Of a DNA stretch of 64,000 nucleotides, positions 7,778 to 33,371 are shown one piece after another. The notes under the pieces were generated by a model that was given only the letters and a program-made list of their open reading frames with translations, was not told the origin of the DNA and did not search any database. The translations under genes were made by a program, and so were the position numbers. Positions within the stretch are counted from its first letter, which is position 1; the number at the start of each line of letters is the position of its first letter. Source of the stretch: Candidatus Obscuribacterales bacterium (GTDB taxonomy: Bacteria > Cyanobacteriota > Vampirovibrionia > Obscuribacterales > Obscuribacteraceae); NCBI GenBank assembly GCA_965228855.1, contig CBDDIJ010000003.1, forward strand, positions 3,040,001 to 3,104,000, in the 5' to 3' direction.

Positions 7778-8425
7778 TTAAATGCCAAAACCTTTTCCAG
7801 CTTCTCCCATACCGGCGATCTGCAATTTGCGATCCGGGGTCATTTTGACGAGATACTCGAATTTGACTTCGTGAACGTTTTGTCCTTTACCAGGCACATC
7901 TAGAATCTGCTTTCCTTCGACCAGCACTACGACCGCCCCATCCGGGCGTTGTTCTCCGATTTTCACAGAGTTCGTAATAAATTGGCTCACGGCGCCGGAT
8001 TGAGCGATAGTCTGAGCCATCTCCGGCGACCAGATGTTCGCGCGGTATGCTTGAGCGCACTCCGGCGACATATATTGAATCGCTTTCTCCTGGCTGCTTC
8101 CAGCAGTTTTCGCGCTGAAATCCCACGCCATCGGCAACCAATCACTGATCAAACGAAGAGCATCGTCAGCATTGGTTGGAGCAACCTGGGGTTCGGCCGT
8201 AAGCGGCGCCGCGCCTGGCTGCTGCGCCTGCGCATTGTATGCAGCAGCGCCGCGTCCACCGGTGACGTCCGGATGGTCGGCCCATTTGGGGCGTTGTTTG
8301 GCGCTTTGTTGCGGTCGCTGTTCAGGCTGAAGCAGGAGCGTGAAAAACATTCCCACCATGGCGCCGGCAAAGCCCACGATGATCAATGTCAGCTTATATT
8401 TTTCACCCGCCTGATAGTCGAACAT
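7778..8425 (-). CDS. VirB8/TraE-like bitopic membrane protein (NTF2-like fold predicted)
   Basis: Single N-terminal TM, linker, then DWLPMAWDFSAKT...QYMSPE helices and a beta-rich C-terminus; located between virB4 and virD4. Confidence 0.55.
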   Translation of the reverse strand: MFDYQAGEKYKLTLIIVGFAGAMVGMFFTLLLQPEQRPQQSAKQRPKWADHPDVTGGRGAAAYNAQAQQPGAAPLTAEPQVAPTNADDALRLISDWLPMAWDFSAKTAGSSQEKAIQYMSPECAQAYRANIWSPEMAQTIAQSGAVSQFITNSVKIGEQRPDGAVVVLVEGKQILDVPGKGQNVHEVKFEYLVKMTPDRKLQIAGMGEAGKGFGI

Positions 8426-8513: not shown

Positions 8514-11339
8514 CTAACCAGCGAGCAGCAAGTCGGGTGTAAACGTTTCCGGCGTATAGCCCTGACCAAGCAAATGGCAGGCCCAACGCGCGTCTCCGCG
8601 GCACAATTCAATCATGCGCGAGCGCATCGGCTGGTCCGTGTTAGGTTCAGTCGTTGCGACCCAGTACATGAAACGCGGGACCACAAGCCTGACTACACCA
8701 CGCGACATCTTGTGGTAGACAAGAAACGCGTCTGAATATTCTCTGTTTTTTCTAGTCAAATGACCGATCGAATTCATCTCCGCCGGCGTCAAACCGCAGG
8801 AATCACGAATGAGATCGAAGTTGCTCGGGTCGTTACCGAGAATGATCTTGAGTGAGCTGTTTGTCGCCAGGTTTCGAGCGCGCTCATCGCGCAACAAGTC
8901 GCCCAGCTCCTGGGAGATTCCGATGAACAGTAGACCTAAGTGGCGTGATGTACGCGAGGCGTCTTCAACCAGAGTCTTACCACCCTCGTATCTGAGCAGT
9001 CGCCACAACTCGTCTATGCAAAAAACAAATCGCGCCGGCTTGCCGGATTTCATCTGCTGCTGCTTGTGCTCGGCTGCGTTTCTCAAAACGAAGTCTGAAA
9101 CGAACAGAGTGACCACAGCCTCAAGAGTCTTATCGTGAGCCAGATCTGACGTATCGAACACAATCAATCTCGCGTTCGACGGAATCGACGTCGGTCCGTC
9201 GAAAAGTTTTCCGTAGATTGCGCCTCGGGTGTAGAGCGACAATCTGTTGACCAGGTCCTCGCAAGTCTCACCACGACGAGTACCTTTGCTCTTCTCGGCT
9301 TCTAGCTTGAGCCACTCGATCAAGTCTGACTCAATCGGCACGCGACCTTTCGTCGCGCACTCTCGATAAATCGCCTGAATGCCCATCATCAAGACCGGCT
9401 TCTCATCCTTGGTCATTGCTTGTTCGCCACGCTCACCGAGCATGACCGAATGGAAATTCAAAATCTTGATGATATGCGACTCGGGTGGATTGGCCGGGTC
9501 GATTTGCTTTCCGTCGGGACCGGCAAGCGGCAAGTCATATAGGTTTAAACAGACCTGACCATCGGGACCGAGTCTGATGTAAGAGGTTTCATCGTAAACC
9601 TCGGCGAGCATTCTGTATGAGCCGGAACGGTCAATAATCACCACTTTGGCGCCGGCAAGCATCTTCATCTGAATGATCTGCTGTGCCACCATGGATTTAC
9701 CTTCACCAGGCTGACCGAAGACTACACAGAGAGCGTTTGGCAGTTTTTCATCGTATGGATTCAGGAAAACCGGCTCCAATGTTTCTTTAGAGAAACCGAG
9801 CCAACTGCCCTTCGTCTCAGAGCCGAGCTTGGCATGAACAAATGGGAATGAGTTGCGCACGGTCGGCGTTCTCACAGCCTTTCCGCGGCGAGTGACATCA
9901 AGTCCCATGCCCGGAAGTGAACCGATGAAAAGACCCTTCTGCTCGCGATAGCCCACTACGAAACGGGCGCCGCGGCACTGAGGACCTGCGGTTCGCACGA
10001 GTTCCGTCGCACGGTTTAGCTCCTCTAGCGACTCGCCGAAGAGGGTGAAATAGATCGCGTAGTTGAACACTTCCATGTTGGATGTGTACAGTTCCGATCC
10101 GATATGCGCCGCTTCCTGTGCCTTTTCCGCTTCTTCCTGGTTAGGAGTCGAGCGTTGTCCCATCAAACTTTGATAGGTGTTCGCCGTGGCTTGCGCTTGT
10201 TTGCGCTGCATGGATTTTCTGAAAACTTCTTTGTCGAGCTTGTGAGCGTAGATGTTCATTCGCCACTCGCAGTTCAAGCGCAGAAGCGGCGAGAGCCACA
10301 ATGGACCGGTTCTTTCAGGGAGACGGCTCATATAAAGCGTGCGAATAAACAGCCCTTCTTTTTCCTTCGCATCCTCGACTGTTAGACTGGCGAGGTCCGA
10401 GATTCGCGCGTAATCCGGATTGCTGAAATCGTACTCCGATTCGGTCAATTGCTGACGAATCGTGGCTGGCTCCATATCAGGGAAAACGCGTCTCACTTTC
10501 GCAGAGACCGGCTGAGTGGTCGGTCTGAGCGGCTCAGGAAGCAGATCGTCAGTGACCTGTCCGAGTTTCGGATTCAGTTCTTTATAGAGCATTCTGAAAT
10601 ATTCGAGCGCGGAAACCGGACGGCCGGTCATTCCGCAGGCACCGAGCGTGCCCATGTAACCTTGCGCGCGTTGCAACAAAGTCGCGACGTTTTTCATATG
10701 CGCGCCCACGCTCTGACGAGCTGCGGTGTTTCCGAAGACGTCCTTGAGCGTCGTAGTGAAGCCTTCGATAAAACCGGCTTTCTTGGCTGGTTTTTCTTTG
10801 GGCGGACGATAGCAGAATGTGACGAAGAACTTCAATTCCGGAATAAAATTCCGAGATAAGAGGCTGGCCTGGTCGTTCTCAACGCACTTCGCTACGTACT
10901 CGAGAAATTCGTCTTTGACTACTTCGACCGGATGCTTCTCGAAATATTCGCGCTTAGTTGTGTTGTGGCAAACAATCGTGAATTGCACAGAAGTATCGAT
11001 ACCATTCAGGAATCCCGTGAAGTGGTTCATCATTGAGACCAGGCGCACTTCATCGAATCCGCTGACGTGAACGCCATCGACTTCGAACATCGTTCTATAA
11101 CTGCCGTCTTTCAGAACGATGATACCAAGTCCGGTGGCATCGTCCTGGAACAAATCCCAGAGAGGAAGAAGTCCGGCAGCTGGAGGGTGAGGTCTGGGAA
11201 CAGCCATTGAAGGCAGTTTCGCCATTGCCGCAGCAACTTTCGGGTCAAGCTTTTCCTTCTCGCCTTTCTTTAGAAGCGGAAGGCCAAGCTCTGGCTGTTT
11301 TGATCTGGGAAGAGAAGTCGTCATTTTTGACTGTACCAT
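8514..11339 (-). CDS. VirB4-like type IV secretion ATPase
   Basis: GIIVLKDG N-terminus, PVFLNPY, Walker A GQPGEGKS, VVIID, LIVFDTSDL, Walker B FCIDELW, SRHLG...ISQE, NSSLKIIL. Confidence 0.92.
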   Translation of the reverse strand: MVQSKMTTSLPRSKQPELGLPLLKKGEKEKLDPKVAAAMAKLPSMAVPRPHPPAAGLLPLWDLFQDDATGLGIIVLKDGSYRTMFEVDGVHVSGFDEVRLVSMMNHFTGFLNGIDTSVQFTIVCHNTTKREYFEKHPVEVVKDEFLEYVAKCVENDQASLLSRNFIPELKFFVTFCYRPPKEKPAKKAGFIEGFTTTLKDVFGNTAARQSVGAHMKNVATLLQRAQGYMGTLGACGMTGRPVSALEYFRMLYKELNPKLGQVTDDLLPEPLRPTTQPVSAKVRRVFPDMEPATIRQQLTESEYDFSNPDYARISDLASLTVEDAKEKEGLFIRTLYMSRLPERTGPLWLSPLLRLNCEWRMNIYAHKLDKEVFRKSMQRKQAQATANTYQSLMGQRSTPNQEEAEKAQEAAHIGSELYTSNMEVFNYAIYFTLFGESLEELNRATELVRTAGPQCRGARFVVGYREQKGLFIGSLPGMGLDVTRRGKAVRTPTVRNSFPFVHAKLGSETKGSWLGFSKETLEPVFLNPYDEKLPNALCVVFGQPGEGKSMVAQQIIQMKMLAGAKVVIIDRSGSYRMLAEVYDETSYIRLGPDGQVCLNLYDLPLAGPDGKQIDPANPPESHIIKILNFHSVMLGERGEQAMTKDEKPVLMMGIQAIYRECATKGRVPIESDLIEWLKLEAEKSKGTRRGETCEDLVNRLSLYTRGAIYGKLFDGPTSIPSNARLIVFDTSDLAHDKTLEAVVTLFVSDFVLRNAAEHKQQQMKSGKPARFVFCIDELWRLLRYEGGKTLVEDASRTSRHLGLLFIGISQELGDLLRDERARNLATNSSLKIILGNDPSNFDLIRDSCGLTPAEMNSIGHLTRKNREYSDAFLVYHKMSRGVVRLVVPRFMYWVATTEPNTDQPMRSRMIELCRGDARWACHLLGQGYTPETFTPDLLLAG

Positions 11340-11371: not shown

Positions 11372-11785
11372 CTAGGCTGGTTCTTCGATTAATGTACTTT
11401 TTTCGATGAAGGCATTGACTTCGATTTCGAGGGAATCATCGAGGTCCTGGTCGATAAACTCCGGCAGCTTTTCATCTTTGAGAAAACGTACTGGATTCGG
11501 GTCCGGTCCTGGAATGTAGACCTGAGAACTCATGTAGAAGTTCATTATGCCTTCCCAGTGTCCGGTTGTGTGATTGAGAGTGAAGAGGCAATATGCTGGT
11601 CCGAGCAGACCAAGAAATATTGCTACGTCCAGTCTCAGGTCGTGCCCCATGAACGGCACTGGGCTCAGCCAGGAGTAAAGCTGAGTGGAAACTATCAAAC
11701 TGCCTAAACACGCAATTAGCTGGTCGTACCGCAGTCCGAACAGCTTTGGGGAGTCTTCTAAATTTAGTGGTGTTTGGTCTTCCAT
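11372..11785 (-). CDS. PrgI/VirB3-like small membrane protein
   Basis: PLNLEDSPKLFGLRYDQL start typical of PrgI/TcpE-like proteins, two TM helices, immediately upstream of virB4. Confidence 0.7.
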   Translation of the reverse strand: MEDQTPLNLEDSPKLFGLRYDQLIACLGSLIVSTQLYSWLSPVPFMGHDLRLDVAIFLGLLGPAYCLFTLNHTTGHWEGIMNFYMSSQVYIPGPDPNPVRFLKDEKLPEFIDQDLDDSLEIEVNAFIEKSTLIEEPA

Positions 11786-12001: not shown

Positions 12002-12703
12002 TTAAGCCACTGATACGTCCGATGGAACGGCGGTGGGCACTATTGTCGGTTTCGGCAAGAAGATGTCTTCAATGATGTGGGGTGGAAGAAGGGTTGGCGT
12101 GGAATCGCCATTTTTTGCCTGTTCAATCTGGTGATTGATGAGTTCTCTCGGAAGGACTGAACGTCTATCGACCAGACTGTAGAAGCGCACGGCATCATGG
12201 AATTCACCCATCAAGCGTAGAACCTCGCCCATGATGAACTGATACCGTCCGCGGTTACCGTCCCAACTGTCGTCGTTGAGAGCTTCGTAAAGTTCGCGGG
12301 AGGCGAGTTCGAGCCATTTGTCGGCGGGCTGGAAATCTTCGCGTGCACACCAGTAGCCATTCAACGCGACGATTGCGCGATCGAGACTGTGAGCGCCGTT
12401 GTTTCTTCCGCTCAGAACAGCATGACCAAACTTCTTGGCATTGTCGACAGGAGGCGCATCCGGAAGCATTTCGGGCAAAAAGTAATGCGTTTGGAACGCG
12501 GATAGCCACCACGTGTAGAGACACTCCGGGCACATCGCAATCAGACTAGCTCGGATGGCGGCATCCGGTAGAACCCGGTGTAGATCGGTCTCTACGCGCG
12601 ACTCGCGTGAAAGCTTTGGCATTTTTGCAACCGGCGTGGCAAACGTGAGTTCGCATTTCGGGCAAATGACTGACGTGAGTTTGAGACTGTAGAGTTTCAT
12701 CAT
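12002..12703 (-). CDS. DUF2225-like protein (Zn-binding CxxC pairs plus TPR-like helices)
   Basis: VICPKCELTF...ETDL...MCPECLY, followed by YQFIMGEVLRLMGEFHDAVRFY TPR-like segment. Confidence 0.7.
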   Translation of the reverse strand: MMKLYSLKLTSVICPKCELTFATPVAKMPKLSRESRVETDLHRVLPDAAIRASLIAMCPECLYTWWLSAFQTHYFLPEMLPDAPPVDNAKKFGHAVLSGRNNGAHSLDRAIVALNGYWCAREDFQPADKWLELASRELYEALNDDSWDGNRGRYQFIMGEVLRLMGEFHDAVRFYSLVDRRSVLPRELINHQIEQAKNGDSTPTLLPPHIIEDIFLPKPTIVPTAVPSDVSVA

Positions 12704-13055: not shown

Positions 13056-13129
13056 ACTCGCCCCGCCTCTCACTTCGCTCGCCTCTCACTCTCGCCCCGC
13101 GCCCCACTCGCCTCACCTCTCGAAACGGC

Positions 13130-13733: not shown

Positions 13734-16700
13734 TTAGTCGTCTGGATCGTAGTAGCGACGGGAACCGCCACCACCACCGCTGCCGCCGGACTGCGAGTAC
13801 GAGCTCTGGTCGTCATAATCCTGATAGGTTCCGGAGCCGCCGTAATAGGGGTCCTTGCCTGCCAGACGCTGATCGACTTTCTCGCGGATTACGCGCACGA
13901 CTTGTTTGTGGAGCGAGGCGCCCGGTTTGCCGGAGTAGTCGGGATGGCTGATGATCTGATTGACGAAGTTCTTGGTCGGATACGATTGCAATTTCACGAC
14001 AGGGTGCTCTTGCGGCTCAGGTGAATTCGAGATGTCGTCTGCGTACTCGGCGAGCAGCTCGGTTCTGTATTCCTGTGTCGCGCCGTGAATTGCTTCGGCG
14101 GCGAAGATGCTCTTCGGATCGATGTTGTTCTGGTTCCACTTCGGATCGCAATCCATCATCGCTTGAACGACTTGAGTGCGCACCAGGCTGAAGTTATTAC
14201 CGCCAAGCTTTCCGGCGGTGACAGCTGCGGTTTGAGCCATCGACTTATCGGTTGCCATAACCTGCATTGCAACAGACGCAATCTTCGGATCCGAAAGCTG
14301 CTCATACGAGAAGCCTGCTGAATGCAAGTCGTAGACCACGTTGTACGCCATCTCGGCTGTCGTATCGTACTGGTTGACCATATTGCGCAAGTTGGCTTCG
14401 ACCTCGCCGGCACTGACACCACCGATGTCGCCTGTTTTACCGAACATCAGTTCGGCTTCAACATGCTGCTCGATGACCTGTCCGGAATTGCCAGGATCGT
14501 TGTAACCACCCATCTGCATATTGACTTGCGGAGTCGAATCTCTGAGCGGCGCTTCGAACCGAACGCGCTGCGTGCCGAGATTGTTGCTGCCGCCGCCATT
14601 GTTTCCGCCTGCGGTGAAAGTCACGTTTGCACGAATCTCGGACGGACGCGAACCGGCAGCCGGAGGTACTTTGATCAAACTCGGGTCGATAGGAGGAGGA
14701 GTCGGTGTATGTCCTGGAACAATCTCCACTTCCACGTTTTGTTCGTTGATGATTGGAGGAGGAGTGCCTACGCCGCCAACGTTGTTGATGTGGATAGGAC
14801 CGGTGCCGCTTGGATGCGAGCTGCCTTGCATACGCATTTGCTGCGTTGGAGGGGTGCCCATACCCTGGTTTGGAGCTTGTCTGAAAGTGACATTCGCTCT
14901 CGTGCCCGGGCCCATTCCGGGTCCCATAATCGGAGGTGTAATTCCGCCGAGATTGAGCGGTCCAACAGGCGAGGCGCCACCGTCGACGTCAACTGGGACG
15001 TCAACAACCTGTTCCATACCGCCGCCGCCACCGGGAAGAACCGTTCCAGAGACATTGGTTGAAACCATCGGCGATCCGCCGCCACCACCGCCGCCTCTGG
15101 GTTGGATGGGAGACACGCCGCCGCCACCACCGGCGAAACCACCACCGCCATTCTTGACGCTGTTTCCGATTCCCTGAACAGCCTTGAGAGCTTGATAGGT
15201 TTGAACGTACGAACCAACGTCCGCTCCGGCACCGACGATGTTCGCGACATCGTTGACCATTTTCACGTCTCGGCAGGCATCGTCGCCGAACTCTGCGCTC
15301 AATGCCGTCGCCGTGTTGACGACTGCCGGCGGCAGTAGTTGTGCTTCGCGACCGGTCCAGGCGTCTGCGACCATCGGATGAGCATCCGGAATCTCGTCGT
15401 TCTTTCTTGCTTCGAGGTAAGAAGAACATCCGGCGATTGCGGCACGTTGCTCCCATGGACGCGATCTGAGAACGGTTGCGTTTGTGGCTATAGCTCTTGA
15501 GGTCGCGTTGATCGGGATCGCGTTTCTCACCAGAGTTTCCGTAGCAGGGATGTGACCCCAGTGCCAGCTGGATTCCGGCGAACCGGCGTCAGTCATGATG
15601 TGGACGCCCCAGGCTTGCTGTTCGTCGGACATCGGACCATAGCGTTGGTTCAGATACTCGGTATACGCATTACCTGGCTGACCGTTGACGTATGCTTGCG
15701 AGCCGGCTACCGATTCAGTGTACAGGGCTTGCTGGAACGCTTGTTTGGCGTTCGCGGTTTGAGCCCAGGAGCCGCCGTTATAAGAAAGGATACCGGATGC
15801 CATTCTTTGAGCGAAACCTTTGGGCTTGTCGGCACCAGCTGCGATGGCAGACTGACGGGCTGCGTCATATGCGACAGGGTCATTGCCTACCAGAGTCGCA
15901 TAACCGGCGGTCATCATCTGCAGAGCCAGTCTGTCAGGGTCCATGCCTTCGGCGTGTCTGACGTGGAAGGTTTGTCCCTTCGCGTTACCCATCAATTCGG
16001 CTTCACCGGAAGTTGATGGTCCGAGAGTCACATCCTGAGCCAAACGGATGCCGCCAGAAATACCACGAGGTGGAATCCAGCGATAGCCTGCTTGTTGATA
16101 GTTGTTCATCGGAACAACCGACTGTGTGGCTTGAAGTCTTTGTTCGTGCGGGCTTGCCGGAGCTTGACCGTGTGGAGTTCTGCCGTCGTCCGGAGGAGTG
16201 TGCATGCCGCCGCCGCCACCATCGCCGCCATTTCCGCCGCCGCCACCGAAACCACCAGCACGGCTGGTGAGGTTCATCGGTCTAATCGGCGAGGAGTTAT
16301 CCGGCTCCCAGCCTGGATCTATGAAACCGCCCGGCGCTTGCGCACCTGTCCTGCCGGTTCCAGCTCTTCGCGCAGCGGGTACCGGGATGACCCCGCCCAG
16401 GTTCACACCCGGAATTCCACCAGCGGCAACTGTCGGTTGAATTTCGACCTTGCCGCCATCAGTCGTAGCGCCCGGAGTGCCGGTCGGAGGTTTGATTTCA
16501 CCTGTGACTGTTTGCTGAGCGTTGACGTTGTCGCCACCAGCCGGAGTCAAGCCAGGCTGTATACGCACTTGTCCGTCAGCGGTACCACCGGGAGTGACAA
16601 CTTCGCTGCCTTCGGCGGCTTTGCCGAGATTGCCAGTCGGAGCTTGTACGCGTCGTCCAGGCAACGAGACAGTGACGGGGACTTTGCCATCGGCACCAGC

Positions 16701-19433
16701 TGTGGTGACACCAGGAGTTACAGCACCAGCTTCTTTGCCGTCGATCTTGCCATCACCGGGCTTGAGTGGCGGAGGCAGTTTGGCCTCAGGAGTGAGCGAC
16801 GCGTCGACGCTGTCGTCTCCAATACCGGTAGTCGGGTCGATGTTACGTGCTTGAGTTGGCTGACCGGTAGATCTGCCCAATCCTTGAATTGTAGAGTCAG
16901 GATTATTTGTCGCTGGTTTACTTTCTGCACCTGGTCTGCGGAGCGGAACCGAAATTGTTCCTTCCGGACCAGCAGCGAGATTCACACCCGGCGTCTTTGT
17001 CGAAAGGTTGGCATTCGTTTGCGGTTTCAAGTCTCCGTCTTTCTTGTCAGCTCCACCAGTGGTGGCACCCGGAGCTAGTTTCACACCAGGAACACCGCCG
17101 CCGGCAGCACCTTCTTCGACATCCATGTTGAGCGGTCTACCATCCGGACCGAGGTTCGCGGCGCCATCTTTTTTGCCGTCACCGGAAAGGGCAGCCAGAT
17201 CTTTGGCACCAGGAGTCGGAGGCGTCACACCGAGTTTGTTACCGCCGGGACCTCCAGGCTTGATGGTTTTGTCGACGGGAGTGGTGATGTCTTTTTGCCC
17301 TTCCGGACCAGCCGCACCTTTTCCGTCAACTCCTTTTCCTGGAGGAACCAGACCTTTGTTCAAAGCGGAATTCAGGTCAGCGCCAGGGTTCTTGGTCTTA
17401 TCGTCGTTGTTGCCGGTTTTTACTTCCTTGCCGTCAACGAGTTGCGGACCTTTCGGTTGTTTATCCTTATCTTTGTCATCGCCGACGATACCAGCGTTGA
17501 TTTCGTTTTCCAATTTCTTCGCGGCCATAGCGGCTTGTTCCGCTTCGGCTCTTGCGCGCTTCGCTTCCTCGTCGCTACCGCCGGTTGGTGTTCTGCCAAC
17601 TCCGGCAGCTCCAAGTGCTGCTGCGCCGGCACCTGCTGCTGCTGCTACACCAGCACCCATTGCTCCTTTTTTGGCAGCATCGCCAATCGGATTGAGCGGT
17701 GCTCCGGCTGCTGACGCAGCGGTCTCCGGCACACCAGGTTTCTTAGCGTCTTCAGGTTTCTTCGGAGGTGTTACGCCAGGTTTTGCCCCAGCAGGACCAT
17801 CACCAGGTTTAATCGGCTTGCCATCGGCACCGATTCCGGTACCATCTCCTTTATCGCCCTTAGGACCTTTTGGTTCACCGTGAGCTGCATCACGAATGCC
17901 TTTGAGCAAGTGCGGATCTCTTGGTCCGTGAGCCAGACCTTTTAGTTCGGCTTTCTTCGACATCTCAGGTCCGCGAGCCGCACCGGTGGTGGTATCGCCG
18001 CCGATGAACTTCGCAAGCTGCATTCCGCGCTGAGAGAGTGTGTCTCCGAGAAATTTACCACCCTTCATCAAGCCGCCCGAAATTAGTCCGGCAGAAATAA
18101 AGTCCGACATCGGGCTGATCTGAGCGCGTGCCAGGAAGGACGGCACCTGGATCATCATCTGCAGAATACCGACAGCAAGGATGATTTTACCCCAGGGGTT
18201 GAAGTCCGAAAGAATCATGATGACGAAGATCTTGAGAAGACCAACCCAGACAAATGTCCAGAGGCTGACTTCAACGAATGATCTGACGAAACCGGATGTG
18301 ACGTTTTCAGTGTCCGGAGTCGCGAAAAATACAATAAAGATCGGAGCGAACATATACTGCGCGGTGAGCAGCGCTGTTTGAATCGCTTTCAAAACCAGGA
18401 TGTACACTAGCTCGGCGATCAGGATGCCGCCCAATATAAGGTAGATGATCAAGCCGGCGAATGCGACCAGGTTTCCTACGGTACCCAGTGCGATACCACC
18501 AGGACCTGCACCGAGTAGTCCACCGAATGCCTGACCGGCAACTGGTGCCGTTGCGTTAGCGATTAGACCTGCGCCAGCCATCAAGCCGCCTTTGACCGCT
18601 GCAGCCATGGCAGCATCAAGGGCGGAGACCTGGTCAGCAGAATTGAAATAAACAGCTTTGATCATTTCGTTCGTGATTTGAATTTCGAACGCGTAGATCG
18701 TCGGCCATGCAAGCATCAAACCTGCGGTGAAGATTAAACGACCGACAGCACCGACCAGGTTGCCACCGCCTCTCCAGGCTGCTTCAGCCCAGTACTTCCA
18801 TATACACAAGATAAAGAGGAGGAGGAGAAGGTCGACCGCGATACCGTACATGACGTCTGCACCCTGACGAATGAAGGGCGAGATATCATCGGCACTTCCG
18901 CCGCCTGGAACGTTGCTCATTCCATTAACTGCGACGTTCGGGTTGAGAACGAAAACGCGGAGGAAACCGGTCAAGAATTGCACGGCATCAGAAACCCAGC
19001 CGTTGATAAATTCAGTCAACCACTTACCAATCAGCTGACCGATGTTTGCGAACAGTTGCGAGATGATGTCATCACCCCAGAATGTATGCAAGCCGACATA
19101 GGTGTCGTTGTACTGTCTGAAGTTATCCGTCAGAAGAGCTTCTACGTTCTGGATAACGATGTCTTTGTTTTGCTCGGCGGCCTGGTTGACGTAGTTAGTC
19201 TGCGGTTCATCAGGAAACGCACGAGCGGTCGCATCGGTACCTTGTGCTCCAGGGCTCAGTGCGCCGGAACCTGGGTCTGCCGGCCATGCTTGACCGGGCG
19301 GCGGTGGCTCAGTTTGAGCGAATGCTGCCGAGAAACCGAAAGGCGCCAGCAGCGTGAAAATTGCTGCGAGCGCGACGACCGACTTGACGGTGCGATTGCG
19401 TATTGTGGCTAGGATTGAAGCTGGCTTGAGCAC
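13734..19433 (-). CDS. Extended VirB6/TrbL-like polytopic membrane protein with ~1450-aa Gly/Pro-rich C-terminal extension
   Basis: Signal-like N-terminus (AFA|Q) and multi-TM core (LLLLFILCIW, GRLIFTAGLML, MFAPIFIVFFATPDT...FVRSFVEVSLWTFVW) typical of VirB6-family channels; T4SS context. Confidence 0.75.
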   Translation of the reverse strand: MLKPASILATIRNRTVKSVVALAAIFTLLAPFGFSAAFAQTEPPPPGQAWPADPGSGALSPGAQGTDATARAFPDEPQTNYVNQAAEQNKDIVIQNVEALLTDNFRQYNDTYVGLHTFWGDDIISQLFANIGQLIGKWLTEFINGWVSDAVQFLTGFLRVFVLNPNVAVNGMSNVPGGGSADDISPFIRQGADVMYGIAVDLLLLLFILCIWKYWAEAAWRGGGNLVGAVGRLIFTAGLMLAWPTIYAFEIQITNEMIKAVYFNSADQVSALDAAMAAAVKGGLMAGAGLIANATAPVAGQAFGGLLGAGPGGIALGTVGNLVAFAGLIIYLILGGILIAELVYILVLKAIQTALLTAQYMFAPIFIVFFATPDTENVTSGFVRSFVEVSLWTFVWVGLLKIFVIMILSDFNPWGKIILAVGILQMMIQVPSFLARAQISPMSDFISAGLISGGLMKGGKFLGDTLSQRGMQLAKFIGGDTTTGAARGPEMSKKAELKGLAHGPRDPHLLKGIRDAAHGEPKGPKGDKGDGTGIGADGKPIKPGDGPAGAKPGVTPPKKPEDAKKPGVPETAASAAGAPLNPIGDAAKKGAMGAGVAAAAGAGAAALGAAGVGRTPTGGSDEEAKRARAEAEQAAMAAKKLENEINAGIVGDDKDKDKQPKGPQLVDGKEVKTGNNDDKTKNPGADLNSALNKGLVPPGKGVDGKGAAGPEGQKDITTPVDKTIKPGGPGGNKLGVTPPTPGAKDLAALSGDGKKDGAANLGPDGRPLNMDVEEGAAGGGVPGVKLAPGATTGGADKKDGDLKPQTNANLSTKTPGVNLAAGPEGTISVPLRRPGAESKPATNNPDSTIQGLGRSTGQPTQARNIDPTTGIGDDSVDASLTPEAKLPPPLKPGDGKIDGKEAGAVTPGVTTAGADGKVPVTVSLPGRRVQAPTGNLGKAAEGSEVVTPGGTADGQVRIQPGLTPAGGDNVNAQQTVTGEIKPPTGTPGATTDGGKVEIQPTVAAGGIPGVNLGGVIPVPAARRAGTGRTGAQAPGGFIDPGWEPDNSSPIRPMNLTSRAGGFGGGGGNGGDGGGGGMHTPPDDGRTPHGQAPASPHEQRLQATQSVVPMNNYQQAGYRWIPPRGISGGIRLAQDVTLGPSTSGEAELMGNAKGQTFHVRHAEGMDPDRLALQMMTAGYATLVGNDPVAYDAARQSAIAAGADKPKGFAQRMASGILSYNGGSWAQTANAKQAFQQALYTESVAGSQAYVNGQPGNAYTEYLNQRYGPMSDEQQAWGVHIMTDAGSPESSWHWGHIPATETLVRNAIPINATSRAIATNATVLRSRPWEQRAAIAGCSSYLEARKNDEIPDAHPMVADAWTGREAQLLPPAVVNTATALSAEFGDDACRDVKMVNDVANIVGAGADVGSYVQTYQALKAVQGIGNSVKNGGGGFAGGGGGVSPIQPRGGGGGGGSPMVSTNVSGTVLPGGGGGMEQVVDVPVDVDGGASPVGPLNLGGITPPIMGPGMGPGTRANVTFRQAPNQGMGTPPTQQMRMQGSSHPSGTGPIHINNVGGVGTPPPIINEQNVEVEIVPGHTPTPPPIDPSLIKVPPAAGSRPSEIRANVTFTAGGNNGGGSNNLGTQRVRFEAPLRDSTPQVNMQMGGYNDPGNSGQVIEQHVEAELMFGKTGDIGGVSAGEVEANLRNMVNQYDTTAEMAYNVVYDLHSAGFSYEQLSDPKIASVAMQVMATDKSMAQTAAVTAGKLGGNNFSLVRTQVVQAMMDCDPKWNQNNIDPKSIFAAEAIHGATQEYRTELLAEYADDISNSPEPQEHPVVKLQSYPTKNFVNQIISHPDYSGKPGASLHKQVVRVIREKVDQRLAGKDPYYGGSGTYQDYDDQSSYSQSGGSGGGGGSRRYYDPDD

Positions 19434-19994
19434 GGGGTGTTTTAATTTGCGAAAGAAACTGGAGTGGATTATGTCTGAAGTCTAAGCCTGGCGAGAAAAT
19501 CTGTCATTGGGGAAATTCCCATCAAAGGCGGGGCGAGCGAGCATTTCTTTCGGCTTTTTTGGGGCAAGCAAAAACGGTTTTTGCCCCGATAGATCTGCAT
19601 ATAAGTAAGAAGCCCATTAATAGGCAATTTCCAACACTCTTTTCGAAAATTTGTCAGAAATTTTTTCGAGCATCGACAAGCATTAAACTTGGTCAAAACC
19701 GAAGATTTAATCTGAACAGCTCAGGCTGCAAAGCACACAGCTATTTTCAGCAGAAATTATGTCGCTCGCAGGGACACTAGCCTAGCCAGCCAGGTCCAAG
19801 GCGCTTAGAGGAAGACAGACAGCCAGCCCTGAAATCACGGAAGGACCGACACATAATGCCGATCCCATCCGAGCCGTTCGACACAAAATTTGTGACGAGC
19901 TTGATGATTTAGTTGTAGAACTCTCAGACGTTAGTCGCAGAACAACTCAACACTTAGCATTCAGACTAAGGCATCAAGCCGATCGAGCCTTTAG

Positions 19995-20041: not shown

Positions 20042-20458
20042 TTAGAGACCGCCGCCGAGACCGCCGTAGTTGTTGATAGCGAAGGTACCGATCAAGTGAA
20101 CCGCAGTCGGTCCGCCGAATCCAACGCCCAGTCCTTTTGCGACGTTCATTGCCGACTCACCGCCATCTCTCTGACCGAAGGCAATCTTCATGCCGGCGAG
20201 TGACGAAGGTACTGTCGAGAGAGCTGTGACTACACGCGAGATGTCTCGAGCGGTGTCATAACCGAAGTCTGCCAATTGTCCTACTTCGTTCGATTGTCCG
20301 TAACGGGGGTCAACCGGAGCGCCTACCAGACCTTGTGCATGTGCGGCTTGGTCGTAGATACCGAACGCCATGAGCACCAGTTGGGGAGCCAGAAGGAAAC
20401 CAACACGAGTGGCAACCTTGAATTTGTGCGAAGAGGTGAGTTTGCTGAGTTTAGACAT
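20042..20458 (-). CDS. VirB2/TrbC-like pilin, copy A
   Basis: Leader ending AAHA|Q; two hydrophobic segments joined by LAGMKIAFGQRDG; GLGVGFGGPTAV; strong AGGAGG SD. Confidence 0.7.
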   Translation of the reverse strand: MSKLSKLTSSHKFKVATRVGFLLAPQLVLMAFGIYDQAAHAQGLVGAPVDPRYGQSNEVGQLADFGYDTARDISRVVTALSTVPSSLAGMKIAFGQRDGGESAMNVAKGLGVGFGGPTAVHLIGTFAINNYGGLGGGL

Positions 20459-20508
20459 GAGTTGCCTCCTAAGGGTGAGAATCGAATGGGGGTAGTGGAA
20501 GACTGAAT

Positions 20509-21186
20509 TTACTTGTGGTGGTTTATGATTTGACCGTAAACATCGGAGTTGGAGCTAAATCCAGAGCTCGTAGGTCTGGTCGATCCCGGTGAGAAGAATT
20601 GATTTCCGTACGATGCGACTTTCGGCTGTGCGTTCAGGCTCGATGGTTGTTTTGGTTTGACCAATCTGCCGGATACAGCACTTCGAGTTTGCGCCGGGCG
20701 TTTTGGAACCATTCGTCCGGACAAACTCTTGTTCGAACTCGGGGCTGTCATCTGCTTCGGCGCTGCCGGTGGAAGCGATTGGGCGACCACTGGCGCATTT
20801 TGTTGGGGTGCTCCGAATCCGGGATTGAACGGGGTTGCCGTCAAAGACGGTTTCGGAACGATATTTGCCTGGGGCTGACCATACGACATGCTGGGATGTA
20901 CGCTGGTCGCGACTCGCGGCTGAACCGGTTGTGGCTTCGGCGCTGGTTTGAGCACACTCGGATCGACACCGAGGAAGCTTGCTGCTTTAGGGACAGCTCC
21001 GTGTCCAACGCTCGTGGTGGGAGGATTGAAATTCTGATAGTGACGTTTCTCAAACTGTTGCGGTCCCCATTTGTTGGGTTCGAAGTCGAAACGTGCTCCG
21101 CGTTGACCTTGAGCCATCGCCGGGTCTACAGCGCCGACTGCAAGAGTGGCGAGTGTCAAAATTGAGAGGGTAATGATGTTCTTCAT
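20509..21186 (-). CDS. Secreted Pro/Ser/Gln-rich hypothetical protein
   Basis: Sec signal peptide (PAMA|Q), low-complexity basic body; co-oriented upstream of pilin A. Confidence 0.75.
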   Translation of the reverse strand: MKNIITLSILTLATLAVGAVDPAMAQGQRGARFDFEPNKWGPQQFEKRHYQNFNPPTTSVGHGAVPKAASFLGVDPSVLKPAPKPQPVQPRVATSVHPSMSYGQPQANIVPKPSLTATPFNPGFGAPQQNAPVVAQSLPPAAPKQMTAPSSNKSLSGRMVPKRPAQTRSAVSGRLVKPKQPSSLNAQPKVASYGNQFFSPGSTRPTSSGFSSNSDVYGQIINHHK

Positions 21187-21197
21187 TGCTGTAAATC

Positions 21198-21956
21198 CTA
21201 AAAACGAAATCCGTTTCTCATCCCGAAACCTGTCATCGTCAGACCTGTGAAACCTAAACCGAAGAGCGAACCAGGTCTTCTGAGTTGCGTGGCCAGTAGC
21301 CCGGCTCCGAGTCCTGCAGTTCCCGCAAGGTTGTTGGCGAAGCCGCCTCTGCGAGTGTCGCGTCTTACGATAGGGGTCTTAGATCCTCCGGTTAGAGTTT
21401 GGGTTTGACTGGAATTTCCGTATTGCGGTGCATTGTTGTTGCTCGCGAAACCTGGATTGAGCCAGTCGGGTTGACCGATTGCGTACTGACCTTGAGCGCC
21501 GGGCATCTGGTTCGGTTGGTTGAACGGGGTAAATTGACCAGGTGCACCCATTGCTTGTTGGCCGTACTGCGGCGTTTGATTTGACAGCTGTGTATTCCCA
21601 AGAAGTGAATCGAATGCTGCTCTGCGCATGTCCTTTGCAGACATGATGCCGCTTGCCGGATTCAAATTCATATGTCCAGCATCAGGAGTCATCTCCGTGA
21701 GCTGCCCAGGGGTAGCACTCATCATCATTCCTGCACCGGCATCTGCCTGGGGCACCACCTCTGGTGGCAGGAAGGAATCTTGAGAATAATTAGCTCCCAT
21801 GGATTGATCGAGAGAAGGAGATTGAGCTTCGAAGCCCTGCGCCAGGACCGGTGTCGAAAGCTGGCTCAAGAAGCCAACCGTAAGAACGACTGCAAGCATT
21901 TGCTTGCGACCATTCTTTTTCGATTCCGTGTGTCTAGCTTGCATCTCGTTTTCCAA
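21198..21956 (-). CDS. Secreted Gln/Gly/Met-rich hypothetical protein with Gly-zipper-like hydrophobic C-terminus
   Basis: Signal peptide (VLA|Q); C-terminal GTAGLGAGLLA...LFGLGFTGLTMTGFG. Confidence 0.75.
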   Translation of the reverse strand: MENEMQARHTESKKNGRKQMLAVVLTVGFLSQLSTPVLAQGFEAQSPSLDQSMGANYSQDSFLPPEVVPQADAGAGMMMSATPGQLTEMTPDAGHMNLNPASGIMSAKDMRRAAFDSLLGNTQLSNQTPQYGQQAMGAPGQFTPFNQPNQMPGAQGQYAIGQPDWLNPGFASNNNAPQYGNSSQTQTLTGGSKTPIVRRDTRRGGFANNLAGTAGLGAGLLATQLRRPGSLFGLGFTGLTMTGFGMRNGFRF

Positions 21957-22412
21957 ATCGTTGGGTTGCCGTCGAACGTGAGTTCATAGTACGAAATCGC
22001 TCATCGGACGAACATCGGTGGTTTTCCCCCCACTATGGGAAAATCCCCCCTCCCTTCATCCATATATAATTTTGTCTACTAGAAAATATCGTGCGTCTCA
22101 AAGCTCAAGAGAGAGCACCTGTAGGTCTTTCGAGAGCCCACGGAAGTCAAGCGCCACTAGTTTGGCAGTCCTGCGTAGACAGAAATTTTGTTTTCCGTCA
22201 TCGCAGGATAGACAATTAGAGCTTTACAAATGCCTAAAGACAGCATCATCGTCGGATCCGAGTTCGTATGCTCTCCAAGGCATGTATGCCGCGGACGCCT
22301 GGCGGCTGCGGTCAGGCACTCGTTAGGCACTCGTTCCAAATCGCACTCAAGAGCCAGCTACCTCAAAATCGGCTCCGACACCTCAGAGCGTCCCGCGGCG
22401 GCGCTTAGCGTT

Positions 22413-22490
22413 CTTCTACCCACAGTAGATTTCGACCGCAAAGGTCCCTGACTCAAGCCGCTTCGGGTTGCTTCTACCCACAGTAGATTT
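22413..22490. repeat. Two exact 20-bp hairpin-forming direct repeats, 38 bp apart
   Basis: CTTCTACCCACAGTAGATTT at 22413-22432 and 22471-22490. Confidence 0.9.
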
Positions 22491-22532
22491 GCCAGTAGAG
22501 GTCTCTCTAGGTTCGACAAGAAGAGACTCGGG

Positions 22533-22566
22533 AAAAACGGCGGTCCGCTGTTCGGCAGGACCGCCG
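22533..22566 (-). terminator. Intrinsic terminator
   Basis: Perfect 9-bp GC stem CGGCGGTCC/GGACCGCCG followed on the minus strand by TTTTT. Confidence 0.7.
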
Positions 22567-22650
22567 GGAACAGCAAAATCGTTCTCGTTTAACTTGCTGG
22601 TGGAATCTAGAAATACTAGAAGAGACCATTAGAGCTCTCGAAGGAGCTAT

Positions 22651-22695
22651 GTCTGTTTTGAAAATGTCTGTTTAGAAATCGTCTGTTTCGAAATA
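22651..22695. repeat. 3 x 15-bp tandem repeat
   Basis: GTCTGTTTnGAAAnn at 22651, 22666, 22681. Confidence 0.85.
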
Positions 22696-23006
22696 AATCG
22701 ACTCAGGTCTTGCGTCGAGACTGAAGTTTCAATTGACACTGCTGATGCTGTTTCACCTTGGCGGCTATGAGAACGCCGGCGACGAGCATCTAAGAGTCTC
22801 GACTGTTTAGGACGCAAACCTTCGACGTTCGAACTGAAGATTCGCATACATATAAATGATTGGGCTGATTCTTTTTGAGTTCGCAAGGGATTTGCGCAGA
22901 CCGCTTCTAATAGCGGTATCAGATATAAATGACTAGAGTCCGCACTTGCGCTGACGGTAGTTTGCCGCGCCTGGCGTGCTGAGGTGATGATCGTCGGAAA
23001 CGGTTT

Positions 23007-23075
23007 ATGGTCATGGGAAGGCCCAGCAGATGGTCACGGGAGTGTCCAGAAGATGGTCATGGGAAGGACCGGCAG
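23007..23075. repeat. 3 x 23-bp tandem repeat
   Basis: ATGGTCATGGGAAGGCCCAGCAG / ATGGTCACGGGAGTGTCCAGAAG / ATGGTCATGGGAAGGACCGGCAG. Confidence 0.85.
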
Positions 23076-23137
23076 ATTGCCATCCGCCGATCCTTTCCGA
23101 GCCGTTCGACAAATTTACTTTCCCAGTCGAGATCTTT

Positions 23138-23560
23138 TTAGAGACCGCCGCCGAGACCGCCGTAGTTGTTGATGGCGAATGTACCGATCAAGTGAACCGC
23201 TGTCGGTCCGCCGAATCCTACACCCAAGCCTTTGGCGACGTTCATTGCGGATTCTCCGCCGTCTCTCTGACCGAATGCGATCTTCATTCCTGCCAGTGAC
23301 GAAGGCACTGTGGATAGCGCTGTGACAACACGGGAGATGTCACGGGCGGTGTCATAACCAAAGTCAGCCAACTGACCTACTTCGTTCGATTGTCCGTAAC
23401 GTGGGTCGACCGGAGCGCCGACCAGACCTTGTGCGTGTGCGGCTTGGTCATAGATACCGAAGGCCATGAGCACCAGCTGAGGCGCCAGGAGGAAACCGAC
23501 GCGAGTGGCGACTTTGAACTTGTGCGAGGACTTAATCTCTTTAAGCGATAGCTTAGCCAT
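23138..23560 (-). CDS. VirB2/TrbC-like pilin, copy B
   Basis: Identical to copy A from SSHKFK to the C-terminus (130 aa); AAGGAG SD. Confidence 0.7.
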   Translation of the reverse strand: MAKLSLKEIKSSHKFKVATRVGFLLAPQLVLMAFGIYDQAAHAQGLVGAPVDPRYGQSNEVGQLADFGYDTARDISRVVTALSTVPSSLAGMKIAFGQRDGGESAMNVAKGLGVGFGGPTAVHLIGTFAINNYGGLGGGL

Positions 23561-23700
23561 TGTTGAATCTCCTTGAGTCTATTTTTACGGTTTTTGAAAA
23601 GTCTTTTTTTGTTTAGGACTGAGTCCTGTGTGCTGTTCGGACTGTTGTCCTGAGTTTTGCGATTGCGAGGACTTGCGTCCTTGAGGTGATGAACTAAGAG

Positions 23701-24696
23701 TTAGAAGTTGGTGATGATTGCCGTTGGCAGTAGAAGTTGATCTCTCTTTTGCGGGTTGGTATTCGCGGGATCAAACTGTGCGTAGGGGAAACCAAAATCA
23801 GTTGATTTGCTCGAGTATTGCGGCAGTCTTCTCATGCCTTGACCAAACTCTGTCGTTTGTTGAGCGGTCAGACCGAGGATGCCGTTTTGTCTCGTCGAGG
23901 ACAGACCGTAGTCTTGGACCGTTGAGCCTGTCGGAATCGTAGTTCCGCCGGCTTGGAATCTTTGACCGCCGCCCAGGTCGATGGCGCTGTTTCTCCAGCC
24001 GTTACCTGACGGTACACCGGTTACTGCACCCCAACCAGCCCAGGGTCCTAATCTTTCGATGTTGTCCTGGCTTCCGTCTGTACCGCCGCCACCGATGATG
24101 GAGTTTCTGCCGCGATATTCATATTGATGGGATTCTTGTCCGCCTCGTCTGACTGTCGGGATGGAGGTGTAATAGCCACCGGTTCCTGGAAGTCCGCCAG
24201 CGGGATTGATGTTGATTTCGTCAGCCGGGTTGATGTAGCCCATCGGAGCTTGCATTGAACCCGGGTCAGGACCAGGCGTTGACGGAGGTGCCGGAATGAA
24301 CGGTGTCAGAGCCGGTCCCAGAACTCCTGGAGGAGACTGAACTGCTGGGTTGATTGGCAGTGGAATACCCGAAGTGCTGTTGTCGATCTGGTTTGCCGGA
24401 ATTGACGGCACCCAGGGAAGGAGTGTGAGCGGCATACCAGCCTGACCAGGATGAACTCCGGCAGGTGTAGGACCGTCGCCCATCGCAGGCGGTTGACCTT
24501 CCGGCGGAGGTACAAAGGGTGCCGAGCTCGGAGCGCCATCCAACAACGGCGTACGGATTGTTTCAACCGGTGCTCCGGGCATTACTCCCGGTTGCACTGG
24601 ATTGCCGGGAAACGGCTGTGCATTTGCCGCTGCCGAGATGCTGACGCTGAGGGCAGCTGCTGCAAATAATGTGGAGAGAATCTTGGACTTACGCAT
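23701..24696 (-). CDS. Secreted Pro/Gly-rich hypothetical protein (paralog of 24757-25575)
   Basis: Signal peptide (ANA|Q), AGGAGG SD; shares motifs with the neighbouring gene. Confidence 0.78.
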   Translation of the reverse strand: MRKSKILSTLFAAAALSVSISAAANAQPFPGNPVQPGVMPGAPVETIRTPLLDGAPSSAPFVPPPEGQPPAMGDGPTPAGVHPGQAGMPLTLLPWVPSIPANQIDNSTSGIPLPINPAVQSPPGVLGPALTPFIPAPPSTPGPDPGSMQAPMGYINPADEININPAGGLPGTGGYYTSIPTVRRGGQESHQYEYRGRNSIIGGGGTDGSQDNIERLGPWAGWGAVTGVPSGNGWRNSAIDLGGGQRFQAGGTTIPTGSTVQDYGLSSTRQNGILGLTAQQTTEFGQGMRRLPQYSSKSTDFGFPYAQFDPANTNPQKRDQLLLPTAIITNF

Positions 24697-24756: not shown

Positions 24757-25575
24757 CTAGTATGGAGCGATGGTGAGTCGAGCTCTGAGGTTTTCCCCTT
24801 TGAAAAAGGTTCTGTTTCCATTGAGGTCGGTGGTGGATTGAGCGCCTGGCAAATTCGCCGATCGGTTTGCTTGACCTCTTTGTCCCGGTGACTGTTGATT
24901 TCGTGGTCCGTCTTCCGATGACTGAGGTGCTTTCTGGAGGTTCGACTTTTGGCTGAGTCGTTCGCCGAAGTCGGTGGTTTGCGAGCCTCCTGTGCCTCTC
25001 ATGAAGCTGCGGAGTCCGTGATCTTCACTTGTCTGTCCGCCCCATCTTTGTATAGGAGCACTTCCCGAGATTCCGCCGCCGCTGTTTATGTTTGTCACCG
25101 TGACCGGTGGTTGATAAAAGTCCGGAGGGGAGTCGATGCTTCCAGGGTCGGAGGTCGGATAGATGGTCGGAGGAGTCAGGTACCCTGCTGCGGCGGCTGT
25201 AGCTGCAGCTTTGCCGTCTTGTCCCGGCGGAATCAATGGCATGCTGACGTGAGATGCCGGCGTCGGGACACCGTAACCGGCGTGACCGGTGTTGATGCCC
25301 ATCGGCGCATAGCCGTCTCCAATCGGGGGGGCCTGTCCTTGAGGAGGTGCAGAGTAAGGGGGCTGCGTCGAACCGTTTTCGACGTTCGGCAACCACATGC
25401 TAGAGTCTGCATCATAATTAGGATTAGGATTCCAGACCTGGGCGTTGGCATTGCCGGTCAGAGAGACTACAGCCACAAGTGCCAGCGTTGCCGCTAACAT
25501 CAATTTGCCGTTTCTCGTCTGAGCCTTGTTCACTTTGTTCTCCGTTTTGTAGGTTTTCCGGTTCGGCAACGTCAT
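24757..25575 (-). CDS. Secreted Pro/Gly-rich hypothetical protein (paralog of 23701-24696)
   Basis: Signal peptide (ANA|Q); PPQGQAPPIGDG, DPGS, RWGGQ, QTTDFG motifs. Confidence 0.78.
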   Translation of the reverse strand: MTLPNRKTYKTENKVNKAQTRNGKLMLAATLALVAVVSLTGNANAQVWNPNPNYDADSSMWLPNVENGSTQPPYSAPPQGQAPPIGDGYAPMGINTGHAGYGVPTPASHVSMPLIPPGQDGKAAATAAAAGYLTPPTIYPTSDPGSIDSPPDFYQPPVTVTNINSGGGISGSAPIQRWGGQTSEDHGLRSFMRGTGGSQTTDFGERLSQKSNLQKAPQSSEDGPRNQQSPGQRGQANRSANLPGAQSTTDLNGNRTFFKGENLRARLTIAPY

Positions 25576-26183
25576 CGCCGCCTCGCGGATTACTCATCGG
25601 ATTCAAAGGTACTACCTGCGGCAAGCCATGTCTGTCGGTGAATCTACGTATACCCCCCCGGTTTTTCCCACTCTCTTCGAAAAATCTGCCACCCATTAAG
25701 AGGAAGTCGAAAGCCTGGCCCTGCGCCAGCTGTCAAGCGGACGGCGAATCAATATACATTCATATAGAATGCTGACCCGCGCATTCGCGGTCGGGCACCC
25801 ACTTCAAACCCAGAGTGAACAAAGTCCAGGATTCTGCAAATCTGATAGCCAATCGACTTCCTTGCCGCTACACGACGAGAACCAAAGCTGATATCGAAAA
25901 CTCGACCATATTGTCGAGCTTAGATATTTGAGGACCAATACACTGGCCAGCATGATCACTGAGTTTCATTCGACAGAGAACTAATGTGTGCCACCACATT
26001 TACACTCAAGATCTGATCGCAAGAGATTTCCAATCGAAGCAAACTCCAAAATTTAAAATCGGAAATCGTCATCAGGATCTCCTACACTCAATCTTGGCCG
26101 TCACCCGCGTTCATATCAAATCAGAAACCGTTTACCTGAGCGCTTTTCTGCCAGGGTCTCGCGAGGTCTTCTTTCGATTCCGT

Positions 26184-26270
26184 TGGAGCCAGGTGGTATC
26201 ACAGTGGTGTCATTGTGGTACCAAGATGGTGTCATACTGGTGGCAATATGGTGGCATCGGTCTGGTATCA
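26184..26270. repeat. Helically phased 11-bp direct-repeat array (TGGTRNCA-N3), candidate protein-binding site
   Basis: Octamers at 26194, 26205, 26216, 26227, 26238 and 26249 (exact 11-bp period), plus 26263 and a degenerate copy at 26184. Confidence 0.88.
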
Positions 26271-28618: not shown

Positions 28619-28698
28619 TGGCAGCCCTCCAGACAATTAAAGGCTACCAGAAGAATGGCACAACGGTATGAATCCCGCTAAATTGATAAACTCGGTTT

Positions 28699-33356: not shown

Positions 33357-33371
33357 GGTTGAAACTAGCTT

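Follow-up and report, generated by a model that had tools for sequence, protein, structure and literature searches.

Pilins of the VirB2/TrbC/TraA type (PF04956 and kin) have a long leader ending in AxA, a helical hairpin with a short charged loop, and a Gly-rich end, and their genes lie beside VirB4. In Patescibacteria, according to the sections of PMC12102498 available, widespread chromosomal type IV secretion systems (T4SSs) combine VirB4 with PrgI/VirB6-type parts and almost no VirB9/VirB10, and their VirB2-like arrays are tandem or split by non-pilin genes. The archaeal Ced and Ted systems, as far as the available part of PMC9905601 goes, are domesticated importers without a relaxase that use host-encoded VirB4, VirB6, and VirB2 homologues, and the leader of the TedC pilin is cleaved. 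The T4SS of Vampirovibrio is presented in part of PMC4451040 as a T-type system, partly plasmid-borne. Here, we analyze two pilin-like genes in a stretch of 64,000 nt (the window) from a Candidatus Obscuribacterales bacterium (GCA_965228855.1, contig CBDDIJ010000003.1, positions 3,040,001 to 3,104,000). They are old duplicates encoding one predicted mature protein of 97 residues, which we regard, with somewhat better than even confidence, as the major, VirB2-type pilin of a T4SS that is fixed in the chromosome and predicted to export DNA.

The locus shares features with each of these systems and differs from each. Its protein has the leader, hairpin, loop, Gly-rich end, and gene position of a VirB2/TrbC/TraA pilin, and its loop region can be aligned with a TrbC. 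However, it matches no profile, its helices are Gly-rich and less hydrophobic, its polar N-arm is longer, and it is the product of a chromosomal core gene with one to four near-identical copies, conserved above EF-Tu in most genomes compared. In the Patescibacteria arrays the mean identity is 25%, the maximum 54%, and relaxases are rare (PMC12102498, available sections), whereas here the mature parts of copies from one locus share at least 96% identity, and a Replic_Relax gene is almost always present. Unlike Ced/Ted, the present bacterial cluster includes genes for a coupling protein and for a protein of a relaxase family. A literature search for Obscuribacterales with VirB4 or with conjugation found no paper (subscription papers are outside its coverage).

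The two genes are as follows.

20042..20458, minus strand: pilin-like gene, downstream copy; open reading frame of 138 aa; predicted mature part 20045-20335, 97 aa, following cleavage between AHA and Q
23138..23560, minus strand: pilin-like gene, upstream copy; open reading frame of 140 aa; predicted mature part 23141-23431, identical protein

The comparison covers 131 codons, starting at SSHKFK and running through the stop. Of these, 45 differ, by one base each, and no residue changes. NG86 counting gives 101.8 synonymous and 288.2 non-synonymous sites, a proportion of synonymous differences (pS) of 0.44, a Jukes–Cantor dS of 0.67, and a dN of 0. By arithmetic from the site counts, a pS of 0.44 without selection would correspond to about 127 non-synonymous differences. 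The two proteins differ only in their first 8 and first 10 residues, respectively. The initial annotation had described one protein from two genes with about 45 synonymous differences, had confined the protein difference to the first 8-10 leader residues, and had invoked very strong purifying selection; the exact counts agree on all three points. It had also called the hydrophobic leader invariant, which is correct for this pair, with 0 differences, but not for the arrangement in general: at 8 other two-copy loci 1-5 of 31 leader residues differ, so that leaders drift more than the mature part.

An assembly contamination of 5.8%, and short-read contigs that break at a 39-nt piece common to both 3' ends, raise the question of an artefact from two co-assembled strains. 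This explanation is refuted and keeps virtually no probability. In run X3, possibly the source sample, read contigs show 0 differences, and one 3117-nt contig spans 20048 to 23164 and thereby joins one copy to the 3' end of the other. In run X18, a different strain from another study, both copies are present in unchanged order. The flanks of the two copies are unrelated, except for one short 3' element. In addition, both copies are found in each of the 8 genomes of the genus, with 15 of 16 mature proteins identical and the remaining one a single residue off. The pair is thus no assembly artefact, in agreement with the initial annotation.

The duplication is old. Positional orthologues in the nearest species differ by a pS of 0.06-0.09 and paralogues by 0.39-0.44; positional orthologues being far closer than paralogues, the duplication is older than the nearest speciation, in keeping with the earlier assignment. 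Whole-gene conversion or a recent duplication could also produce identical proteins. For the deeper branching order the record is balanced, with 23 sites for an old a/b split and 21 for within-lineage sisters (approximately unbiased test, p 0.40); the window and L031 copies join in the tree at 84/95, not starred; and elsewhere L057_b and L057_d show no difference over 128 codons. However, the synonymous differences of the window pair (pS 0.44) occur all along the gene, identical runs in the core reach 33 nt at most, the pair shows no conversion tract (p 0.99), the split predates the nearest species, and the protein is almost unchanged in genomes with a single copy. As the sole cause of the identity, conversion or recent duplication is therefore refuted and very improbable; older partial conversion may have occurred in the window pair. 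For the genus conversion signal, no 5'/3' breakpoint is supported (p 0.34).

The earlier denial of recent conversion thus stands for this pair, but gene conversion does act elsewhere in the family. In a three-copy clade, positional orthologues are closest at synonymous sites, and two amino-acid changes are common to all three L090 copies. L090_b equals its paralogue at 10 consecutive informative codons (68-81), which 0 of 20000 permutations reach, and L090_c does so at 5 such codons (p 0.00045). The case was picked after the data were seen, and two control copies have 2 paralogue-matching codons each. The pattern indicates that amino-acid changes have spread to old paralogues through short conversion tracts. 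In G031, three copies about 0.2 synonymous distance apart share one mature sequence, 13 residues from that of the window.

The near-invariance is order-wide, not special to the window pair. The predicted mature protein is present in 36 of 39 genomes of the order at 88-100% identity. Identity to the window genome's own protein was compared for the pilin and EF-Tu in 30 genomes with both full-length: the pilin has the higher value in 27 and the lower value in 2, and one genome gives a tie. Six genomes are outside this comparison, two with a partial EF-Tu (G015, G029), one with a foreign-looking EF-Tu (G034), two without an EF-Tu match (G035, G039), and one with a truncated pilin (G024). The pilin is also better conserved than RarA at 42/42 loci, VirB4 at 33/33, and UvrC at 13/13; the 68-locus set behind locus counts here is drawn from the best 80 of 125 matches, with a bias toward close relatives. 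The 102 full-length copies reduce to 30 different mature sequences, in which 74 of 97 columns never vary; in the leader, 12 of 31 columns are invariant, so conservation climbs past the predicted cleavage site. Among 69 loci, 44 have one copy (some of them ended by contig edges), 18 two, 6 three, and 1 four. In 33 of 42 pairs of copies from one locus, the mature proteins are identical. Because the constraint is order-wide, single-copy genomes included, the identity of the pair requires no pair-specific cause.

The family profile has matches in 79/79 genomes of the order and weak matches in 7 of 171 other genomes of the class; these 7 are among 20 genomes of another family, and the 5 checked match in a Cys-rich leader domain only. 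Searches of plasmids (2 matches, E 2 and 5) and of viral contigs give no pilin relatives, and named relatives are nearly all Obscuribacterales or Melainabacteria. Two observations concern individual copies. At L140 (G024:C11:243428-244336) both pilin copies lose frame after the same GFGG codons, each into different DNA, which may be assembly collapse or real truncation. At L046, L049, L055, and L061, in one lineage, a divergent pilin-like gene (34-42% identity) directly follows the conserved copy and is a candidate minor pilin.

Multicopy genes with identical products are known for polymer and ring subunits, namely gas-vesicle GvpA, histones, and the mammalian ATP synthase subunit c isogenes. 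There, as here, old copies with synonymous divergence and differing leaders yield one mature sequence under dosage and purifying selection, with occasional conversion. These proteins have no sequence relation to the pilin and the analogy is one of evolutionary pattern only; in that sense, the pattern of old copies with one product is already known from other polymer subunits. The best reading of the pair is that the genes are dosage duplicates of a co-polymerizing subunit under extreme purifying selection.

The anatomy of the protein points to a pilin. The leader is basic, then hydrophobic, and ends in AHA, with cleavage between AHA and Q predicted from sequence. The mature part has a polar N-arm followed by a two-helix hairpin, rich in Gly, Ala, and Ser, with the loop QRDGGE. 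An AlphaFold2 (AF2) model (predicted local distance difference test, pLDDT, 77) places the helices at 17-53 and 61-91, joined by a short charged loop. Among the matches listed, the named ESM Atlas neighbours are DUF2976, DUF4134, DUF3852, T4SS_pilin, and TrbC, at 0.84-0.90 overall and at 0.84-0.87 for the mature part; DUF2976 and DUF4134 are pilin families. Contig C4 of the same assembly encodes an IncP-type TrbC, with which the hairpin can be aligned so that the two loops coincide; 5 of 2000 shuffles reach the score of this alignment. This contig of 182 kb carries IncP-type trbB/trbC/trbD-like genes (G000:C4:58542-58838, L122) and its own coupling protein, and may be a plasmid or a contaminant. 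From context, anatomy, language-model neighbours, and the weak TrbC alignment, the protein likely works like a VirB2-type pilin.

The fold searches are less specific. Foldseek and VIA-align, run with full and mature models, return generic helical hairpins with Z up to 7.5 and no conjugative pilin among the matches listed, a result that excludes nothing. Sequence searches of the PDB with the protein and two profiles give no match at E 10, and hhalign against the VirB6-like N-terminus gives a probability below 1%. The main structural rival is a closed membrane ring or short channel, similar to a c-ring, which would serve as an inner-membrane or periplasmic conduit and never form an extracellular pilus. 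Gly makes up 20 of 97 residues, and helix 2 has a GxGxG packing motif, invariant in 31/31 cluster-type rows and absent from the 11 derived rows (0/11); the motif counts in favour of the pilin too, and both features would suit such a ring. C-ring chains are among the tied fold matches (2wie_A, Z 6.6, root-mean-square deviation 3.8, 79 aligned; 6qum_O, Z 6.7, root-mean-square deviation 3.1, 68 aligned), a hidden structure would evade phage-driven diversification, and no outer-membrane core gene is recognized in the cluster. However, such Z values reflect the common hairpin only, the leader looks cleavable, and the Atlas neighbours are pilin families. Subunit c of ATP synthase is marked by a mid-helix acidic residue and an RQP loop. 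Both are absent from the present sequence, and atpE is located elsewhere, at C3:288.7 kb. We consider the ring unlikely.

Two candidates for further processing of the pilin were rejected. RP4 TrbC and TrhA undergo head-to-tail cyclization with C-terminal trimming (PMC12037004, available part). As a pilin cyclase, a nearby S26 peptidase fails: none is in the cluster, and the nearest, in 14 of 60 order genomes (E 1e-40), is inconsistently linked. An exosortase is present in 16 of 39 order genomes versus 36 of 39 for the pilin.

Both copies are probably expressed, as had been suggested, to judge from codon bias, ribosome-binding sites, and a shared 3' hairpin. The C-ending share of Phe/Tyr/Asn/Ile codons is 18/20 (0.90) in the downstream copy and 17/21 (0.81) in the upstream copy. 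Among 2665 gene proxies of contig C3, to which the ranking is restricted because high-GC contigs disturb a whole-genome ranking, the downstream copy ranks 3rd and the upstream copy is in the top 30. With EF-Tu at 0.91 and a contig C3 median of 0.54, the codon bias of the pilin genes matches that of EF-Tu. The signals around the copies are as follows.

20465..20470, minus strand: Shine-Dalgarno-like AGGAGG, 6 nt ahead of the start of the downstream copy; orthologues have similar sites
23569..23573, minus strand: Shine-Dalgarno-like AGGAG, 8 nt ahead of the start of the upstream copy
19839..19883, minus strand: conserved 3' element with stem-loop, after the downstream copy
23062..23111, minus strand: same 3' element, after the upstream copy, then three 23-nt direct repeats, 23007-23082

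The 3' element occurs at two genome sites only, one per copy, and is kept behind the pilin copies of relatives. It has no match in Rfam and is likely an mRNA end or stabilizer. Promoter and terminator scans are at chance level. In one soil metatranscriptome, a relative is represented by short contigs over 20194-20787 and over a few more genes of the cluster; the library may contain DNA, and these contigs are unsuited to ranking expression.

The pilin genes lie in a co-oriented cluster, in the order of four exported proteins with the pilin copies among them, a polytopic protein, a DUF2225-like protein, VirB4, VirD4, and Replic_Relax.

24757..25575, minus strand: predicted exported protein, 272 aa, first cluster gene; in 56/68 loci
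23701..24696, minus strand: predicted exported Pro/Gly-rich protein, 331 aa; 58/68 loci, median 66% identity
21198..21956, minus strand: predicted exported low-complexity protein, 252 aa, between the copies; no Pfam/NCBIfam match; 60/68 loci
20509..21186, minus strand: predicted exported low-complexity protein, 225 aa, between the copies; no Pfam/NCBIfam match; homologue in 64/68 loci
13734..19433, minus strand: polytopic membrane protein with long low-complexity tail; no Pfam/NCBIfam match; 61/68 loci
12002..12703, minus strand: DUF2225-like zinc-binding protein; PF09986 at E 9e-4, below cut-off
11372..11785, minus strand: small two-helix membrane protein; no Pfam/NCBIfam match; 33/68 loci, median 71%
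8514..11339, minus strand: VirB4-type ATPase; PF19044 above cut-off; TIGR02746 at 181 bits and NF045971 at 159 bits, both below cut-off
7778..8425, minus strand: single-pass membrane protein; no family match
4086..7595, minus strand: VirD4-type coupling protein; PF02534, PF12696, and PF10412 above cut-off
2915..3787, minus strand: Replic_Relax-family protein, candidate relaxase, last cluster gene; PF13814 above cut-off

By position and hydrophobicity only, the products of 13734..19433, 11372..11785, and 7778..8425 appear VirB6-like, PrgI/VirB3-like, and VirB8-like, respectively. The conjugative trio is present, consisting of VirB4 (PF19044), the coupling protein (PF02534), and the relaxase-family gene (PF13814, which serves as a relaxase model in the available part of PMC11104534). 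VirB4 has matches in 39/39 genomes of the order (in one, a distant paralogue only) and in 0/21 others of the class; the VirD4 core is in 58/60 order genomes, and the Replic_Relax gene likewise in 58/60, with one strong copy each. The cluster is a fixed chromosomal system. An integrative conjugative element was considered and rejected: there is no border tyrosine integrase, the cluster is linked to rarA in 42/68 loci, and nearly all order genomes have it. The nearest tyrosine integrase is about 165 kb off (serine and DDE enzymes were not searched by profile).

With a coupling protein and a relaxase-family gene present, the cluster looks like an exporter. Instead of exchanging DNA, a pilin-bearing machine could make contact with hosts or prey and deliver proteins, as has been proposed for Patescibacteria, whose chromosomal T4SSs with VirB2 arrays are mostly relaxase-free (PMC12102498, available sections). 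Such a role has also been proposed for the Vampirovibrio T4SS, for use on prey (PMC4451040, in part), and four exported low-complexity proteins flank the pilin genes here. However, a Replic_Relax gene closes the cluster and is kept across the order, and the host-contact pilin arrays are diverse (mean identity 25% in the available sections of PMC12102498), the opposite of the present case. We hold this alternative to be quite unlikely.

For the pilin of a DNA exporter, the following mechanism is proposed. The leader would be cut at the predicted site, so that both genes supply the inner membrane with the same subunit, whose Gly/Ala/Ser-rich hairpin would be seated there. VirB4 and the VirB6-like protein would pull the subunits into a tightly packed helical protein–lipid tube, to which VirD4 and the Replic_Relax protein would feed DNA. 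Substitutions would be purged because nearly every residue contacts a neighbour, lipid, or an assembly factor. Several copies and the codon bias would follow from a demand for many subunits, with the second gene copy lifting subunit output. Copies within a genome would tend to match because their products co-assemble in one polymer and a mismatched copy is selected against. A rare accepted change may be passed to the other copies via short conversion tracts, as seen in one relative and not in the window pair.

Several results weigh against this reading. On the side of the protein, the Atlas scores of the mature part are below 0.9 and give leads only, hhalign against a single TrbC gives a probability below 1%, and Pfam and NCBIfam searches with both copies find no family. 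Only 1 of 79 alignment members touches TrbC (PF04956), at E 0.026; the protein is below the curated cut-off of PF04956 and PF18895, and so is not filed as a member. Its helices are much less hydrophobic, with Kyte–Doolittle (KD19) peaks of 1.3-1.4 versus 2.1-2.6 for TrbC. On the side of dosage and matching, 44/69 loci have a single copy (some cut by contig ends), and six related loci (L047, L073-L077) have two or more conservative differences stable between copies. An exact match between copies is not obligatory, given these lasting differences. The RNA contigs are few and cover the downstream copy, not the coding part of the upstream copy, which is no evidence on the expression of the latter. 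On the side of the machine, no VirB9/VirB10 is recognized by Pfam/NCBIfam among the cluster proteins, of which the four exported ones are unassigned, leaving outer-membrane passage unexplained, and DNA transfer is inferred from gene content only.

Some observations from the rest of the genome and the window concern the machine. Three exported TrbI/VirB10-like proteins are encoded outside the cluster (G000:C2:1983354-1984505, C5:37604-38653, and C2:865045-865758); one of the three scores above cut-off, and one lies 6 kb from a second VirB4 cluster. This second cluster (G000:C2:1990062-2007731, L104) has a similar order, with VirB4 at about 32% identity, and comprises exported proteins, two large membrane proteins, DUF2225, a small membrane protein, VirB4, and two single-pass proteins; neither pilin nor VirD4 is seen in it. 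A second VirB4 is present in most order genomes, and the L104 cluster is possibly a recipient or import machine. Directly upstream of the cluster described here are rarA, uvrC, and a radA-like gene (window 27341-37246), with rarA adjacent in 42/68 loci, which no more than hints at a connection with DNA repair like that of Ced. Long intergenic stretches at window 12700-13730, 22000-23100, and 25600-26400 are strain-variable, with direct repeats of 15-, 22-, and 23-nt periods. Strains replace parts of them, and they are candidates for origins of transfer (oriT) or regulatory sites.

The pilin module is also found on other proteins. A search of 1.84 billion representatives gives 136 matches, which a pattern sort divides to yield 24 of VIT type and 20 with a Cys-rich leader domain, the pilin part being C-terminal. 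In 61 aligned matches, identity is 71% in the N-arm and 68% in the C-arm and only 17% in the hairpin core, whose residues are bulkier and more basic. A motif-bearing piece of the VirB6-like N-terminus is carried by 6 of the 136 (E 9e-30 to 0.01). Five long fusions were scanned; four show a clear or weak resemblance to TIGR04477, the XrtN target, and none of them reaches the cut-off. Assembly chimeras may account for some of the fusions to kinase, TIR, or M56 domains.

In the window genome, the exosortase adjoins its own PEP-CTERM target, a VIT protein with a normal PEP-CTERM, and a paralogue of that protein (26% over 800 aa, E 2e-61) ends in the pilin module. One VIT-domain membrane protein ending in the module is at G000:C3:868465-871326 (L099). 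A second (G000:C5:128288-131584, L101) ends in the pilin N-arm and a VirD4-like motif, a 9-residue VirD4 match that occurs only twice in the six frames of the genome. Stand-alone small genes at G000:C3:1670064-1670597 and 3339165-3339833 hold a copy of the VirB6-like periplasmic N-terminal piece (59% and 41% identity). Small proteins at G000:C3:504177-504812, C2:182989-184031, and C5:740189-740845 mostly have a Cys-rich leader domain, then a whole or partial pilin-like module. Both pilin ends and other cluster-gene pieces recur as C-terminal tails of VIT proteins where relatives have PEP-CTERM. Options for the tails are a docking tag, a decoy, or a minor subunit, and on VIT proteins they may be an undescribed sorting or decoy signal.

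A wider proposal, which we put forward as doubtful, is that the Obscuribacterales domesticated a full conjugation machine as a core organelle for chromosomal-DNA exchange, a counterpart of Ced/Ted. The pilin would be frozen as a universal self-compatible conduit, and its two outward-facing ends, together with VirB6-like/VirD4 pieces, would be reused as a new class of C-terminal tag, for docking or as a decoy, in place of PEP-CTERM on VIT surface proteins.

The pair has practical uses as well. Its 45 synonymous markers permit copy-specific RNA-seq, and one peptide set or antibody would detect the structure in any Obscuribacterales-rich sludge or enrichment. L090 offers a clean bacterial case of amino-acid changes spreading among old paralogues by short conversion tracts. 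For the organisms themselves, order-wide conservation, up to four copies, and top-rank codons mark the secretion machine as an abundant core function and no passenger. Pilins usually rank with the most variable proteins of the cell surface; the conservation of this one suggests that the structure is concealed from phage, or that compatibility across species is required.

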